From positions 35 through 64,034 of the forward strand of contig CAMDYG010000009.1 in the NCBI GenBank assembly GCA_945910225.1: DNA of 64,000 nt, given 5' to 3'. Positions 48 to 47,720 of the stretch are shown here, piece after piece. The notes under the pieces were generated by a model. That model made no database searches, was not told the DNA's origin, and was given only the letters and a program-made list of their open reading frames with translations. Each line of letters begins with the position of its first letter. Position 1 is the stretch's first letter. The position numbers were made by a program, and so were the translations under genes. The DNA comes from an uncultured Eubacterium sp. GTDB lineage: Bacteria > Bacillota > Clostridia > Lachnospirales > Lachnospiraceae.

Positions 48-1466
48 CTACTCAATCTCTTTTTTCTTAATTCTTTCAAGATAATCTTTAGTTTCCTTAG
101 CAACCACACCATTTAAAGCGACAAGTGCGATAAGGTTAGGAATTGCCATCAGACCATTAAAGATATCTGCGATTGTCCATACTGCAGATACTGTCATGTA
201 AGGACCAATGAATACACAGAGGATATATAACCATCTGTATGCTTTGATACATTTCTTCTTGCCATTAGTAAGATATTCAAGGCAGCGTTCAGAGTAATAA
301 TCCCAGCCGAGAATAGTTGTAAATGCGAAGAATACAAGGCATAACATAAGTATAAATGAAGCAACTCCGTCAGGGAAAGGAAGTCCTAACTGGAATGCTT
401 TAGTTGTAACTGCTACACCTTCAAGTCCCATATCATAAGCACCTGTAACAACAATTGCAATACCTGTAATTGAACAGATGATGATAGTATCGATAAATGT
501 ACCTGTCATAGATACAAGACCCTGACGGACAGGTTCATTAGTACGGGCAGCAGCAGCAGCGATAGGTGCACTACCAAGACCAGCTTCGTTAGAGAAGATA
601 CCTCTTGCGATACCCTTCTGCATAGCTACAATCATGGCACCAAGAGCACCACCTGCAGCAGCCTTAACACCAAATGCACTCTGTACAATGGTAAGGAGAG
701 CAGCAGGAACATCAGTAATATTAAATATAATAATAAGAATTCCGGCAATAAAATATGTTGCAGCCATAAAAGGAACAACAACCTGTGCAACTTTGGAAAT
801 TCTCTTGATTCCACCAATAAGAACAAGGGCAACACAGAATGTAAGAATAAGACAGCTTATAACTACAGTCCATGAATATGTTCTGCCAAATAATGAAACA
901 GTCCATGAATTATTAGGATCAAAGAAATTATTAACAGCAGAAGAAATACCATTTACCTGTGTAAATGTACCGATTCCCAAAAGACCAACGCCAACACCGA
1001 AGAAAGCGAATATCTTTGCAAGCCATTTCCACTTAGGTCCCATACCATGTTCAATATAATTGAAAGGACCACCAACAACATGGCCATCTTCATCAACCTG
1101 TCTGAACTTTACAGCTAAGAGACATTCTGAATATTTGGTGGCAGTACCAACTAAGGCTGCGAGCCACATCCAGAACAATGCGCCAGGACCACCGGCAACA
1201 ATAGCAGTAGCAACACCGACAATATTACCAGTACCGATTGTTGCTGAAAGCGCTGTACATAATGCTGCAAAGCTGCTTACTTCACCATGCTTGCCATCAG
1301 TTTCATCTTTGAAAATGTACTTAAAAGCACGACCGAGATTGGTAAACTGGACACCCTTAAGTCTGATAGTAAGAAACAGACCAACTGCAAGGATAAGAAC
1401 AATGAGAGGGATGCCCCAGACATATGCGTCAATAGTATCGAGAATAGTATTGATTTTACTAAACAT
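48..1466 (-). CDS. Sodium:alanine/glycine symporter (AGCS family)
   Basis: 472 aa, highly hydrophobic. AGCS motifs ATIGTGNIVGVA, GGPGALFWMW and RGIFSNEAGLGS. RBS AAGGAG upstream. Confidence 0.93.
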   Translation of the reverse strand: MFSKINTILDTIDAYVWGIPLIVLILAVGLFLTIRLKGVQFTNLGRAFKYIFKDETDGKHGEVSSFAALCTALSATIGTGNIVGVATAIVAGGPGALFWMWLAALVGTATKYSECLLAVKFRQVDEDGHVVGGPFNYIEHGMGPKWKWLAKIFAFFGVGVGLLGIGTFTQVNGISSAVNNFFDPNNSWTVSLFGRTYSWTVVISCLILTFCVALVLIGGIKRISKVAQVVVPFMAATYFIAGILIIIFNITDVPAALLTIVQSAFGVKAAAGGALGAMIVAMQKGIARGIFSNEAGLGSAPIAAAAARTNEPVRQGLVSMTGTFIDTIIICSITGIAIVVTGAYDMGLEGVAVTTKAFQLGLPFPDGVASFILMLCLVFFAFTTILGWDYYSERCLEYLTNGKKKCIKAYRWLYILCVFIGPYMTVSAVWTIADIFNGLMAIPNLIALVALNGVVAKETKDYLERIKKKEIE

Positions 1467-1502: not shown

Positions 1503-1531
1503 ATTCTACCATAAAATCACATACTTTTCAA
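1503..1531 (-). promoter_or_regulatory. Sigma70/SigA-type promoter of the symporter
   Basis: Minus strand reads TTGAAA-17 bp-TAGAAT with a TG extension. Confidence 0.6.
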
Positions 1532-1583: not shown

Positions 1584-1612
1584 TTGACAAAAAGTTAGCA
1601 ATTATATATTAT
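1584..1612 (+). promoter_or_regulatory. SigA-type promoter for the fhs leader
   Basis: TTGACA (1584-1589)-17 bp-TATTAT (1607-1612). Confidence 0.7.
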
Positions 1613-1674
1613 GATTGAAAAATAAAGGCGTTTTGCAGACATGGCAAGACGCTTTTTTCCTATTAAGGGAATGT

Positions 1675-1872
1675 CCGGATGATATGACCGGGAGAGACTA
1701 CGAAAGTGGCGCCGAAGGTGATTGCAGAAACTCTCAGGCAAAAGGACCGGTTATGGACGGAACTCTGGAGAGCTGTGTGGATACAGCACCGAAGAAGCAA
1801 TTTCTAAGCAGAGGGATGAGAAATATAGAGACTTATTTGCTTGGGGAGAATCTTTCAGGTTTTTAACAGAGG
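1675..1872 (+). ncRNA. Tandem glycine riboswitch (two aptamers)
   Basis: Aptamer 1: GGAGAGAC...CGCCGAAGG...CTCTCAGGCAAAAGGACC, with P1 ATGACCGG/CCGGTTAT. Aptamer 2: CTCTGGAGAGC...CACCGAAGAAGCAA...CTTTCAGGT...CAGAG. Kink-turn-type leader GGATGA and linker GGACGGAA. Confidence 0.9.
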
Positions 1873-1900
1873 CATATGTGCCTGAAAGGAGAAGAACAGA

Positions 1901-3571
1901 ATGAAGACAGATATTGAAATTGCACAGGAAGCGGTAATGGAGCCAATTAAGAATGTTGCAGCCCAATGTGGCATAAGTGAAGATGATCTTGAGTTATATG
2001 GAAAGTATAAGGCTAAGATATCTGACGAGTACATCAATAGCATCAAGAATAATGAAGATGGTAAGTTAATTCTTGTTACAGCGATTAACCCAACTCCGGC
2101 AGGAGAGGGAAAGACAACAATTACTGTAGGACTTGGAGAAGCATTTGGCAAGCTTGGTAAGAATGCAGTTATAGCACTTCGTGAGCCATCCCTTGGACCA
2201 TGTTTCGGAATCAAAGGCGGAGCAGCTGGTGGTGGATATGCACAGGTAGTTCCTATGGAAGAACTGAATCTGCATTTTACAGGTGATTTCCATGCAATTA
2301 CATCAGCTAATAACTTATGTGCTGCACTGCTTGATAATCATATACAGCAGGGAAATGAACTTGGAATTGATCCAAGATGCGTTGCATGGAAGAGATGTAT
2401 GGATATGAATGACCGTGTCCTTAGAAATATTGTTGTAGGTCTTGGTTCTAAGGTTGATGGAACAGTTAGAGAGGATCATTTTGTTATCACAGTTGCTTCA
2501 GAGATTATGGCTGTATTATGTCTTGCAACAGACATGAAGGATTTAAAGGAAAGACTTGGCAAGATGGTAGTTGCTTATAATTATCAGGGACAACCTGTTA
2601 CAGCAGCAGATATCAAGGCAGTTGGCTCAATGGCAGCATTGTTAAAGGACGCATTAAAGCCTAATTTAATCCAGACACTTGAGCATACACCAGCATTAGT
2701 ACATGGTGGACCATTTGCCAATATTGCACATGGTTGTAACTCAGTAAGAGCAACTAAGACAGCGCTTAAGATGGCAGATTATGTTATCACAGAGGCTGGA
2801 TTTGGTGCAGATTTAGGCGCAGAAAAATTCTTCGACATTAAGTGCCGCAAGTCAGGCTTAAAGCCAGATGCAGTTGTACTGGTAGCAACAGCAAGAGCAC
2901 TTAAGTACAATGGCGGAGTAGCTAAGACAGAATTATCAGCAGAGAATCTTGATGCATTAAAGAAAGGTATCGTAAACCTTGAAAAGCATATAGAGAATCT
3001 TCAGAAATATGGAGTACCTGTAGTTGTTACGCTTAATGCATTTGTATCAGATACACAGGCAGAATTAGATTATATACAGAAGTTCTGTGAAGATAAAGGC
3101 TGTGAGTTTGCCCTTGCCAAAGTATGGGAAAAGGGTGGAGAAGGTGGAATTGAACTTGCAGAGAAAGTACTTAAGACACTTGAGACAAAGAAGAGCAATT
3201 TCCACTATCTGTATGATACAGACCAGCCGGTTAAAGCAAAGATTGAGACTATTGCCAAAGAAATATATGGCGCTGGAAGCGTTAATTATTCAGCAGCAGC
3301 TAACAAGCAGATTGCACAGCTTGAACAGTTAGGATTTGGTAATCTTCCAATCTGCATGGCTAAGACACAGTATTCACTTTCAGACGATCCAACATTACTT
3401 GGTCGTCCAGAAGGATTTGAAATGAATGTAAGAGAAGCATATGTATCTGCAGGTGCCGGCTTCATAGTAGTACTTACAGGTTCAGTAATGACAATGCCAG
3501 GACTTTCAAGGTCACCAGCAGCATATAATATTGATGTTAATGATGATGGAGTAATAACTGGATTATTCTAG
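1901..3571 (+). CDS. fhs: Formate--tetrahydrofolate ligase
   Basis: 556 aa. [46 protein letters not shown] and a C-terminal GLF. Confidence 0.98.
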
Positions 3572-3840
3572 AAAAGGCTTCCGTGAGTGGGAGGCAGGTG
3601 ATTTGTGTAGTGAGGTATCCTATGGGAAACTGTACTGCATAATAATAAGCATTGAGCGATTAGGTAATGACACCATCCGTGGAGTGTGTACGCTGGTGTT
3701 ATCTTTTGGCTCAATGCTTTTTTATTATGCGTACAGTTTATGGTCGGAATACCGCTATGTTGCAGCAGTGTAACTGGAATATGTAGCGATGTATTACAGT
3801 TACAAGAACACTGATTGCGACCGAAGTATGACAGTATAGC
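3572..3840. repeat. Structured palindromic intergenic repeat, related to the element at 47160-47720
   Basis: Long hairpin 3627-3739 with arms GCATAATAATAAGCATTGAGC / GCTCAATGCTTTTTTATTATGC. The same arms recur at 47184-47204 and 47307-47326. Confidence 0.75.
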
Positions 3841-3880
3841 AATTATCATAGAAATAATAAGCTCAAGATAGTGTTACAAA

Positions 3881-3925
3881 AATAAGCGGCTGTAGATCCA
3901 TTGATTTTGGAAACAGCCGCTTATT
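3881..3925. terminator. Probable bidirectional intrinsic terminator
   Basis: 13-bp inverted repeat AATAAGCGGCTGT/ACAGCCGCTTATT between the converging fhs and XRE genes. Confidence 0.65.
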
Positions 3926-4140
3926 GCTTGAAGAATTCATTGTAATCGCACTTGAAGATTTTGGTAAGTGCAATCAACATATCTACAGTTGGATTATTAT
4001 ATCCGTGTTCCACTTTACTGAATATGCCCGTTGTGACATTGACATTTTCACATTGAAGTTTGGCAATAACTTCAGTAGCTTTCATATTACGTTCCTTGCG
4101 AAGCCTTTTTATATTAGTTCCGATTAGTACGTTTTTTTGC
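3921..4140 (-). CDS. XRE-family helix-turn-helix protein, start uncertain (possible pseudogene); not in the ORF track
   Basis: Manual translation: ...KNVLIGTNIKRLRKERNMKATEVIAKLQCENVNVTTGIFSKVEHGYNNPTVDMLIALTKIFKCDYNEFFKQ*. This fits the HTH_3 pattern IG.NI..LR..R.....E.A......SK.E.G...P....L..L...F. The only in-frame ATG (4085) lies inside the domain. Confidence 0.7.
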
Positions 4141-4424
4141 GTGTCAGTTGCAAAAGGAGAATCATTAGAATTGGAATTGTGAGATGGAAAGCGTACTAAA
4201 GCAAGAGAAGAAAGCAGATTAGTATGTAATTATGTTAGTTAAGAGCAGGAGCGGAAGAAAAGGGCAGAATAAAGGCATACTAGATGAGGAGTTTATATGT
4301 GTTTAGGTTATAGCCATATAGTTGAACCTTACCATAGGCTTGTCCCAGGACTTACACCTCCCCCAAAACTTCCCAATGACTTACCTGGTGAGGAATTGTA
4401 AACTGCAGACAATGAAAAAGAAAA

Positions 4425-4448
4425 GTCCAGCCGTATACACGGCTGGAC
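4425..4448 (-). terminator. Intrinsic terminator of the yhgE operon
   Basis: Perfect stem GTCCAGCCGT/ACGGCTGGAC followed on the minus strand by TTTTCTTTTT. Confidence 0.85.
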
Positions 4449-4478
4449 GAATTTATAGGGTGGGGAACACTCGCGCTT

Positions 4479-6224
4479 TTACAGCATAACCCCTGACTTC
4501 TCCTTGCTTCTCTCAATCATATGATTCAACTTCTCAAATGGCTTCTGTAAGAACAAGCCAATAATAAGTGAAACAACTATATATATTGAAAGAAATGCAA
4601 GGTTTTTAATGTAATCGTATCTGTACATTCCTGCAATACATTCTCTTAAAGCATCCATAGAATATGGGAAGAGCAGGAACTTGTATATTATCTGGTAAGC
4701 ATTAGGAAGTACTTCTATAGGGAAAGTACCGCCCGAACCAGCAACCTGGATAACCAGGAGAACGATACCAAGAGCTTCACCAATATTACCAAATGCTACA
4801 GTCAGACTGTACATAAAGAAAGTAAATACAAAACTCGAAAAAGCACAGGCAAGCCAGTACAGGAACGGATGGTAACACTGGATTCCGATATAGAATAGAT
4901 TGCCAAGTGTAATAAGCAGAGCCTGAAGCTGTCCTACTGCAAAGAAGATGAAGTATCTTCCAAAGAATTTCTCATATCTTCTGGCATTCTCAGGAATGTC
5001 AGGAGCCGGGTGAACCGGTGTATGCATAATAGCTACAAGAATAAGTCCTCCAAACCATAATGCAAGAATAGTGTAGAATGGAGATGCTGATGTACCATAG
5101 CTTTTAACTGCATATACCTGTTCGGTGGTAATGTTAACAGGTGCAGAAAGAAAATCTCCTAAAGTATCAGCATTGGCATTCAGTATTTCAGAAAGAAGAC
5201 CATAAGTATCCTGTTCAGATATAGTATTCAGAGTGTCTATAGAATTATCAAGCTTTGTCTCAAGGTCAGCAAGAAGCTCTTTAGTCTGGTTAAGAGAGCC
5301 GGAAGTCATGCTGATAGCACTGGAAAGATCAGCAGCATCCCTGTTCATATCCGAATAAAGTTCTGTAAGTGAATTCATTATGCTCTGAATCTGTGCCATC
5401 TGGGAAGAAAGAGCAGAAGATAATTCATTCAGCGATTCTACAGAATTGGTGTCAACAAGAGCCTGTAACGTAAGCAGCTGCTGTTGCTGAAGCTGTAGCT
5501 GTGTATATATCTGCGGTGTAGCACTGCTGGAGCTACCACTTATTGATGATGATAAATCAGTTATCGCAATCATCGAATTAAGGATAATATCATAAGTTGA
5601 AAGTGTAGTTCTTGCAGATACAAGTCTTTCCGTAATGGCATCCATTAAAGAACCATTTTCTTTGTCAGCATCTTTAATAGCAGAATCACCTGTGTCAGCT
5701 ATAGTTGTAACAATTGTATCGATAAATGTCTGGTTAACCTGCTGCTGGACGGCTGTTTTAGCTTTATCAGTAATCTTAGGCGCAATAGCATTGGCCTTCT
5801 GGTTGCAATAATACTGAAGCTGTGGATGTTCCATAGTATCACTCAGAAAACTGATAAGATTTTTAGAAAAATCTTCTGGAACAACAAGAGCTGCATAATA
5901 TTCTCCACTATATACACCTGCAATGGCGGCATCTTTTGAATCGACAAACTGCCATCCAATCGTATCATTAGTTTCGAGGGCATCAATAATTGAATCACCA
6001 ACATTTAATTCCATACCTTCAAGAGCAGTACCTTTGTCTACAGATACTACAGCCACTTTTATTCTGCTGGTAGATGCCTGACCATAAGGATCCCAGTTTG
6101 ACAGAATATTAAACCATGAATAAAGAGCAGGAATAACCGTGAGTCCGATAATTACACACAATGCAATAACATTATTTTTTATATGGCTAAGGTCAGCCTT
6201 AATGATTTTAAAAATATTTTTCAT
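4479..6224 (-). CDS. YhgE/Pip family membrane protein (EsaA/ABC-2-like)
   Basis: N-terminal PALYSWFNILSNWDPY motif, coiled-coil middle region, and C-terminal multi-TM domain with YG...PFYT.LALW and QVAGSGGTFPIE. Confidence 0.92.
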   Translation of the reverse strand: MKNIFKIIKADLSHIKNNVIALCVIIGLTVIPALYSWFNILSNWDPYGQASTSRIKVAVVSVDKGTALEGMELNVGDSIIDALETNDTIGWQFVDSKDAAIAGVYSGEYYAALVVPEDFSKNLISFLSDTMEHPQLQYYCNQKANAIAPKITDKAKTAVQQQVNQTFIDTIVTTIADTGDSAIKDADKENGSLMDAITERLVSARTTLSTYDIILNSMIAITDLSSSISGSSSSATPQIYTQLQLQQQQLLTLQALVDTNSVESLNELSSALSSQMAQIQSIMNSLTELYSDMNRDAADLSSAISMTSGSLNQTKELLADLETKLDNSIDTLNTISEQDTYGLLSEILNANADTLGDFLSAPVNITTEQVYAVKSYGTSASPFYTILALWFGGLILVAIMHTPVHPAPDIPENARRYEKFFGRYFIFFAVGQLQALLITLGNLFYIGIQCYHPFLYWLACAFSSFVFTFFMYSLTVAFGNIGEALGIVLLVIQVAGSGGTFPIEVLPNAYQIIYKFLLFPYSMDALRECIAGMYRYDYIKNLAFLSIYIVVSLIIGLFLQKPFEKLNHMIERSKEKSGVML

Positions 6225-47159: not shown

Positions 47160-47720
47160 TAAGACTTCCGGACAAACTAAGCTGCATAATAATAAGCATT
47201 GAGCAATGAAATTTGTTTATGTGTCCGTTACGCCGCCAACGCACATCCGTGTGCGTGGCAGCTCACGCGTCCGTCCATGGACGCGTGTACACTAGACTAT
47301 ATACATGCTCAATGCTTTTATTATGCGCATAGTTTGTAGTCAGTCTGTACCTGACACAACCTACTGCTATATCTCCAAATGGCGGACTACCATATACAGA
47401 ATTTATTACAGTGCTAAAAAACAACGCGCTTCGCTTGGACGCGTTTTTTAGCACTGAATTTTTGTATATGGCAGTCCTAACTCCCACACAGCTCGTAAAA
47501 AATCAAGCTTGTGTTACGACAGCGTACCACTTGGAAAATAGACTGACACAACATGCGGGAGAGATGGTACACTAGACTATATACATGCTCAATGCTTTTA
47601 TTATGCGCATAGTTTGTAGTCAGTCTGTACCTGACACAACCTACTGCTATATCTCCAAATGGCGGACTACCATATACAGAAGTTATGGCAGTCCTAACTC
47701 CCACACAGCTCGTAAAAATA
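47160..47720. repeat. Nested palindromic intergenic repeat with a 280-bp-offset direct duplication
   Basis: 47287-47401 is identical to 47567-47681, and 47467-47501 to 47684-47718. Multiple GC-rich hairpins. Shares arms with 3627-3739. Confidence 0.88.

Follow-up and report, generated by a model that had tools for sequence, protein, structure and literature searches.

A glycine riboswitch that lies between two divergent genes raises the question of which gene it serves, how it came to serve that gene, and whether it still does so. The window analysed here, a stretch of 64,000 nucleotides from an uncultured Eubacterium sp. of the Lachnospiraceae, contains such an RNA between a gene of the Na+/alanine-glycine symporter family (AGCS) and fhs, which encodes formate--tetrahydrofolate ligase. 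The answer that we favour, and regard as probable on the comparison of related sequences, is that an ON switch of the gcvT type was inherited on fhs, that its expression platform has been truncated in the window, and that the remaining control, if there is any, would be translational.

When the whole window was scanned with Rfam 15 (cmscan, gathering thresholds), the Glycine family (RF00504) matched twice, at adjacent positions on the plus strand separated by a gap of 3 nt. Both aptamers score above the gathering threshold of 32 bits (61.0 and 34.2 bits) and the distance from the end of the riboswitch to the start of fhs is 30 nt, so that the Rfam covariance model bears out what an earlier note had read from the letters, namely a tandem glycine riboswitch on the plus strand directly 5' of fhs. 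The locus comprises the following elements:

48-1466, minus strand: AGCS gene, divergent from the riboswitch (TIGR00835, 469.9 bits)
1503-1531, minus strand: predicted promoter-like site for AGCS, TTGAAA-17-TAGAAT, TG-extended (consensus scan)
1584-1612, plus strand: predicted promoter-like site for the fhs leader, TTGACA-17-TATTAT, 11/12 (consensus scan)
1624-1656, plus strand: terminator-like 13-bp hairpin with a U-run, between the predicted start site and aptamer 1 (-20 kcal/mol, z=-3.2)
1674-1682, plus strand: P0 leader strand, UCCG at 1674-1677 with a GAU bulge and a GA step, pairing with the linker at 1756-1761 (GA, CGGA)
1679-1759, plus strand: glycine aptamer 1, canonical (RF00504, 61.0 bits, E=3.5e-10)
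1763-1871, plus strand: glycine aptamer 2, degenerate (RF00504, 34.2 bits, E=0.0042)
1885-1891, plus strand: Shine-Dalgarno motif AAAGGAG of fhs, 9 nt 5' of the ATG at 1901 (read from the sequence)
1901-3571, plus strand: fhs, formate--tetrahydrofolate ligase (NF010030, 947.7 bits against a cutoff of 652)

The cores of the three-way P1-P2-P3 junction are complete in aptamer 1, with GGAGAG, CCGAAGG and CUCAGGCAAAAGGAC all present in the RF00504 alignment, and partial in aptamer 2, the score of which is marginal against the threshold. Aptamer 2 keeps GGAGAG, CACCGAAGAAGCAA and the helices P1 (1763-1767 with 1867-1871), P2 and P3, and all 19 of its 19 modelled pairs are standard base pairs; its alterations are a long insert in P3b and a J3/1 core that reads UUUUAAC, where the consensus is AaaaGGAC. 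With this degenerate core aptamer 2 may not bind glycine, and stabilization of P3 would then come indirectly from aptamer 1.

In the MFE fold as well as in the RNAalifold consensus, UCCG (1674-1677) pairs with CGGA (1758-1761) to form helix P0, which carries one compensatory U-A to C-G change. Inspection of the sequence against the published K-turn of tandem riboswitches predicts that P0, the 3-nt bulge and the GA/GA steps form such a leader-linker K-turn. Across seven aligned sequences, compensatory double changes keep the pairing in 7 of 54 predicted pairs, which lie in P0, in both P1/P2 sets (P1 and P2 of aptamer 1 among them) and elsewhere. The support from covariation appears modest, as the diversity of the clade is low and most of the seven compensatory pairs are owed to a single contig (L166) from an unrelated lineage of Clostridia. 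Judged by its covariance-model matches and its predicted fold, this element of the 5' UTR of fhs, here a monocistronic gene, is a genuine tandem glycine riboswitch and would be expected to bind glycine.

Two further RNA-family matches were rejected. The glycine-GGAnGA variant family (RF03166) gave 77.4 bits over 1675-1832 on the plus strand in a permissive scan, below its gathering threshold of 110; this is a cross-match within the same clan, and both aptamers carry the canonical GGAGAG. A match to the trpB motif (RF04312) at 1560-1664 with E=0.97 was set aside as a chance match. It should also be noted that an 83-aa open reading frame on the plus strand (1615-1866) lies over the riboswitch and is annotated as a gene in the tables of public assemblies (L081, L087). 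It is almost certainly spurious, and gene callers that place it over the riboswitch are a practical concern.

The AGCS gene is divergent from the riboswitch, as had been noted before, and appears to have a promoter and a short leader of its own: its promoter-like site (1531 to 1503) predicts a 5' UTR of about 30 nt and stands back to back with that of the fhs leader. On the minus strand, the Rfam scan gave no RNA-family match even at E<=1. Both hexamers of the promoter-like site of the fhs leader are invariant in the aligned sequences that cover the region (the window, L001, L082, L083 and L087-L089). The hairpin at 1624-1656 has an invariant stem and a variable loop across three lineages and has no counterpart in L166; a 5' stabilizer, a bidirectional terminator and a roadblock are possible roles. 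Downstream of fhs lie genes of the YhgE/Pip family on the minus strand, with no folD. Elsewhere in the window, the genes are ordinary housekeeping ones (tig, clpPX, lon, rho, prfA and others), and genes of glycine or C1 metabolism were not found among them.

The 80 closest fhs loci in GTDB, with one genome per species and amino acid identities of 63-97%, were searched for glycine riboswitches with a regular expression, and the 22 closest also with Rfam. Only a single one (L001, 97% identity) has a glycine riboswitch, and it shows the same layout as the window, with AGCS on the minus strand followed by the tandem switch and fhs on the plus strand. This genome is labelled Ruminococcus sp. CAG:382, and the closest other fhs genes come from metagenome-assembled genomes of Lachnospiraceae. 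No match of ZTP, THF or fhsA type was found in the window or at the 22 closest fhs loci.

Beyond this set, tandem RF00504 matches 5' of fhs were found in L082-L084 and L087-L089. The homologous aptamer 1 was scored at 58.5-65 bits in L001 and in the relatives of L082 type and at 63.9 bits in L166; aptamer 1 reaches 61-65 bits versus 33-40 bits for aptamer 2. AGCS orthologues that are 94-97% identical occupy the same position in L001, L082, L087 and L089. The cluster of fhs proteins at 90% identity that includes the protein of the window has 2212 members in the protein database, and the contigs that encode the cluster representative (L082-L084) carry the riboswitch. A metagenome scan with a pattern that extends from the core of aptamer 1 across the linker into the beginning of aptamer 2 returned 120 contigs; fhs is the first downstream open reading frame in 84 of them and is almost always 97-98% identical to that of the window. 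In long contigs of a sister lineage from the human gut, collinearity with the window extends from AGCS past fhs to both YhgE/Pip genes and beyond (75-92% DNA identity), and pig-gut runs contain a further, more divergent relative with AGCS, switch and fhs.

Outside this clade, one contig of an unrelated Clostridia lineage, the above-mentioned L166, has a tandem switch (63.9 and 39.7 bits) 5' of an fhs that is 64% identical to that of the window. It has no AGCS nearby, its neighbours being DUF5685 and DnaJ-domain genes, and the nearest relatives of its fhs (80-82%) have no riboswitch. Thus, the pairing of switch and fhs, as far as the surveyed sequences indicate, is inherited within a genus-level clade and sporadic elsewhere, and its sporadic occurrence among the surveyed fhs loci means that it is not a family-wide trait.

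An fhs-folD operon under the control of the switch, as suggested by L087-L089, was considered and rejected as a chimera of metagenome assembly. In sliding windows, the fhs genes of these contigs match the L082 type at 98-100% identity over the first ~750 nt and at 61-84%, mostly 65-75%, thereafter; L085 and L086 show the reciprocal pattern of identity to L087-L089. The fhs proteins of L087-L089 are singletons in the protein database, and long contigs have the layout switch-fhs-YhgE/Pip, which contradicts switch-fhs-folD. The arrangement fhs-folD is the usual one in other Lachnospiraceae. More widely, L085-L089, L109, L165 and L202 are mosaics whose joints lie in conserved parts of fhs or at the aptamer core CUCAGGCAAAAGGAC, and such contigs are likely to be assembly chimeras that give false relatives of fhs at 85-92% identity and a false link of fhs to folD.

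A TwoAYGGAY RNA (RF01731, 67.8 bits) is present in the window at 47171-47338 on the minus strand, between the genes for an RNase H and a GDSL lipase, and a full copy lies directly 3' of fhs in the relatives L001 and L086. Fragments resembling the ends of TwoAYGGAY occur at ~3627-3745 and ~47587-47621, with no Rfam match at E<=1; the fragment 3' of fhs resembles a copy with an internal deletion. The intergenic region between fhs and YhgE (3680-4479) exceeds that of the sister lineage from the human gut by ~370 nt and is without a match there, and it contains short open reading frames at 3568-3849 (minus strand, no NCBIfam match) and 3924-4127 (plus strand).

How the switch would act is best read from the relatives. 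In every relative, the 3' strand of aptamer-2 P1 (ACAGAG) runs directly into a hairpin, AGAGGCAUAGGUG...CGCCUGUAGCCUCU, that is followed by UUGUUUUUAUG or UAUUUUUAUG. In L001, the terminator AGAGGC...GCCUCU with its U-run has a free energy of -26.3 kcal/mol (z=-4.2), and in L166 it is formed by CAGAGGCGUC...GACGUCUCUG followed by U8. The terminator sequence is kept in all relatives, and its 3' arm recurs in 87 of the 120 contigs of the metagenome scan. Aptamer-2 P1 shares its nucleotides with the base of the terminator, and because the 5' arm is shared in this way, the glycine-stabilized aptamer would exclude the terminator, as expected of an ON switch. Glycine binding in the relatives would therefore stabilize aptamer-2 P1, block the terminator and turn fhs on. 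We infer from this design that the ancestral platform was glycine-ON and of gcvT type. The claim that glycine controls fhs, made in the earlier note, thus gains from a pairing that is conserved in the sister lineages and recurs in L166, all of which have terminators of ON design, but for the window itself such control is uncertain, as its platform is truncated.

The truncation concerns exactly this terminator. A terminator scan found no intrinsic terminator 3' of the aptamers in the window. The absence of a terminator after the aptamers is unusual for a Firmicute riboswitch, and the window alone is without the terminator 3' arm, the T-run and the spacer. Compared with the L082-type sequence, about 101 nt are missing (blastn), with the break at 1885-1888 and an AAAG microhomology at the junction, which the alignments with relatives place at about 1880-1888. 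The following two elements flank or take part in the new arrangement:

1851-1859, plus strand: UCUUUCAGG, 3' strand of aptamer-2 P3, candidate anti-Shine-Dalgarno, pairing with 1881-1889 in MFE structures
1870-1883, plus strand: residual 5-bp hairpin AGGCA-UAUG-UGCCU, remnant of the ancestral terminator stem (alignments with relatives), abutting the Shine-Dalgarno motif AAAGGAG

The short platform of the window is absent from all 120 metagenome contigs, and the 87 contigs with a terminator arm include those whose aptamer 2 is closest to that of the window (L115, L130); therefore, the deletion is derived. The deletion allele is real and not an artefact of assembly: an independent ENA contig (L081) shows no difference over the 423 nt that were compared, and three pig-gut metagenome runs yielded contigs that cover 1450-2113 or 1450-2150 with zero differences. 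In total, 19 runs, mostly pig-gut metagenomes, contain 89-100% of the window's sampled words. From the sequence of the allele it follows that transcriptional control is lost in the window lineage of the pig gut, and since the deletion removed the terminator, any remaining control by glycine in the window would have to act on translation.

A route to such control would be offered by the deletion itself. In the window lineage, the loss of ~100 nt fused the terminator stump to the ribosome-binding site, and CCUGAAAGG (1881-1889) arose at the junction, a sequence complementary to the strand UCUUUCAGG (1851-1859), which is conserved among relatives. The duplex of the two has a free energy of -13.3 kcal/mol, versus -6.4 to -8.9 kcal/mol for the equivalent regions of relatives. 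Without glycine, UCUUUCAGG would pair with CCUGAAAGG and cover the first half of the Shine-Dalgarno motif; in the presence of glycine, the UCUUUCAGG strand would be held within the aptamer and the motif would be freed, so that excess glycine would lead to more Fhs. The predicted pairing probability of A1885-G1888 is 0.72-0.79 without constraints versus 0.03-0.27 when the aptamer-2 helices are enforced, and the polarity suggested by the folds and by the relatives is ON. That one deletion took a glycine-ON switch from transcriptional to translational control in a single step, with UCUUUCAGG becoming the anti-Shine-Dalgarno, is a tentative proposal that we consider somewhat doubtful.

The main competitor of this proposal is that the riboswitch of the window is a recent relic, that the deletion uncoupled fhs and left the same promoter to drive it constitutively, and that the complementarity of CUUUCAGG and CCUGAAAGG is fortuitous. 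The missing terminator 3' of the aptamers would fit such a relic. The helix covers only A1885-G1889, leaving A1890 and G1891 unpaired (pairing probability <0.1), so the Shine-Dalgarno core GGAG is only half covered. A duplex of equal strength arises in 5% of dinucleotide shuffles of aptamer 2, and the helix may be fortuitous at this frequency. The absence of the platform from the 120 metagenome contigs (0/120) would mark a young, lineage-restricted allele that has had little time for aptamer decay. On the other hand, no substitution specific to the window is found at conserved core positions of the aptamers, the junction sets the Shine-Dalgarno motif exactly opposite a conserved aptamer strand with a duplex stronger than in any relative, and the allele is established in many pig-gut samples. 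We think it possible, albeit with a likelihood well short of even, that the window riboswitch is such a relic. In assembled contigs of metatranscriptomes, the depth over the riboswitch was 12 and 4.1 versus ~3 for pieces of coding sequence, which shows that leader RNA is present and is no demonstration of regulation. On the predicted folds, the chance that residual translational switching is functional in the window seems to be about even, and for the window copy an uncoupled relic is roughly as likely as an ON switch that acts weakly on translation.

The inherited ON switch leaves the question of its source. The most economical origin, as suggested by the shared designs, would be the recruitment of a gcvT-type ON switch to fhs. 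Several gcvT-linked switches from the same metagenome scan (L160, L180, L191, L203) have a ACAGAGGC...GCCUCUG-Un design, as in the fhs relatives, and L203 and L185 share AAUCUUUCAGGU-AAAGAAC-AGAGGCAU with the window. Within the 120 contigs, those with the same linker type but without fhs have gcvT or malate synthase as the downstream gene, and never AGCS. Tandem glycine riboswitches 5' of malate synthase were seen in L090, L117, L167, L200 and similar contigs from soil and peat; an association of glycine riboswitches with malate synthase has already been reported for environmental bacteria.

A different history, raised in the earlier note as a possible local rearrangement, is that the switch first controlled the adjacent AGCS gene and was redirected to fhs by that rearrangement or by an inversion. 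AGCS genes are indeed common targets of glycine riboswitches, and one directly adjoins this switch. However, the layout with AGCS on the minus strand and switch and fhs on the plus strand is kept throughout the clade and stays collinear, the switch also precedes fhs in L166, which has no AGCS nearby, and the ancestral platform is of ON type, whereas the single experimentally characterized AGCS-linked switch, that of Streptococcus pyogenes, is an OFF switch. In addition, a survey of glycine riboswitches has shown that aptamer 1 is the better conserved one in gcv (ON) switches and aptamer 2 in transporter switches (Crum et al. 2019, PMC6944388), and here it is aptamer 1 that is conserved; finally, the 120 contigs with the same linker include gcvT-linked relatives and no AGCS-linked ones. 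The proposed rearrangement is therefore very improbable, and we abandon it in favour of the recruitment of a gcvT-type switch.

The metabolic meaning of glycine-ON control of fhs depends on the direction in which Fhs works. In a catabolic scheme, the one put forward in the earlier note, glycine would be converted to methylene-THF, 10-formyl-THF and finally formate with the gain of ATP. In an assimilatory or detoxifying scheme, formate would be converted via 10-formyl-THF to methylene-THF, with which serine hydroxymethyltransferase would convert excess glycine to serine. Both directions fit the sequence, and the AGCS neighbour and a gene of the formate/nitrite-transporter family that lies beyond AGCS in L082 and L087 are compatible with either. 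Fhs is also the entry enzyme of the reductive glycine pathway, and an OFF switch by which glycine represses fhs as feedback on the route from formate to glycine would suit that role, but it is highly unlikely, as the terminator 5' arm is the 3' strand of aptamer-2 P1 in every relative, so that the ligand-stabilized fold excludes the terminator, and enforcing the aptamer of the window frees the Shine-Dalgarno motif in the predicted fold.

While the RNA class and its mechanism are well known, the regulated gene, fhs, is new with respect to the two gene-naming surveys consulted. A RegPrecise-based survey of glycine riboswitches lists grdABCDEX, glyA, abgB, gcvTHP and gcvB together with transporters and serine genes, and fhs is absent from it; fhs and COG2759 are likewise absent from the available parts of the supplements of a 2025 survey of contiguous riboswitches. 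Within these sources, fhs is thus an uncatalogued target of glycine riboswitches. Crum et al. (2019, PMC6944388) binned the contexts only as GCV, TP, GLY_MET and OTHER and mention neither formate nor folate, and a full-text search of the literature found no paper linking glycine riboswitches with fhs.

Formate-THF ligase would thereby join the genes under glycine-riboswitch control, in a clade that is common in gut metagenomes, as seen from the 2212 members of the fhs cluster and the ~84 of 120 scanned contigs. The link is relevant to how an abundant gut bacterium, still uncultured, couples its glycine, formate and folate-C1 metabolism. The allele with the deleted terminator and the sister species that bear the terminator form a natural pair for studying the loss or rewiring of an expression platform. 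If the one-step conversion were true, the sister species and the window lineage would represent the states before and after a turnover of the expression platform, and an abundant gut clade would gate Fhs by glycine, possibly in place of the glycine cleavage system.

Among known systems, the closest is the gcvT-type tandem switch of Bacillus subtilis, a transcriptional ON switch (Mandal et al. 2004), which likewise combines two aptamers, a short linker and a single platform; the overlap of the terminator with the 3' strand of aptamer-2 P1 in the relatives of the window is a further likeness. The better conservation of aptamer 1 in the window switch conforms to the gcv pattern (Crum et al. 2019, PMC6944388), and the gcvT-linked metagenomic switches L160, L180, L191 and L203 resemble the fhs relatives through their ACAGAGGC...GCCUCUG-Un design. 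In contrast to the B. subtilis switch, that of the window regulates, if it still does so, fhs and not gcvT/H/P, its aptamer-2 J3/1 is degenerate, and its terminator has been lost altogether.

A second comparison concerns the type-1 singlets with a 3' ghost aptamer (Ruff & Strobel, as described in PMC6944388), which are associated with gcv in 93% and are mostly linked to ON regulation of glycine catabolism (Crum et al. 2019, PMC6944388). Like these, the window switch has one canonical 5' ligand-binding aptamer, and its 3' partner may serve mainly as a scaffold and for coupling to the platform. Unlike in a true singlet, aptamer 2 of the window scores above the Rfam threshold and has retained P1, P2 and P3, and the window switch is thus an intermediate form.

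The switches linked to AGCS and other transporters share the RNA family with the window switch, and an AGCS gene adjoins it, but theirs lie upstream of the transporter in sense orientation, conserve aptamer 2 and, in the case of S. pyogenes, are OFF, whereas the window switch is antisense to AGCS and its lineage conserves aptamer 1 with an ON-type design. The features of a transporter-type OFF switch are thus missing, given the antisense orientation, the far higher score of aptamer 1 than of aptamer 2, and a ligand-bound fold that, in the relatives, excludes the terminator.

With respect to the regulated gene, the ZTP (pfl) riboswitch has also been reported upstream of fhs. The fhsA motif is a weak riboswitch candidate 5' of fhs in Leptotrichia (PMC11109978). 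Both resemble the window switch as cis-regulatory leaders controlling formate-THF ligase and differ from it in their folds and ligands, and they illustrate that bacteria do place fhs under the control of RNA sensors.
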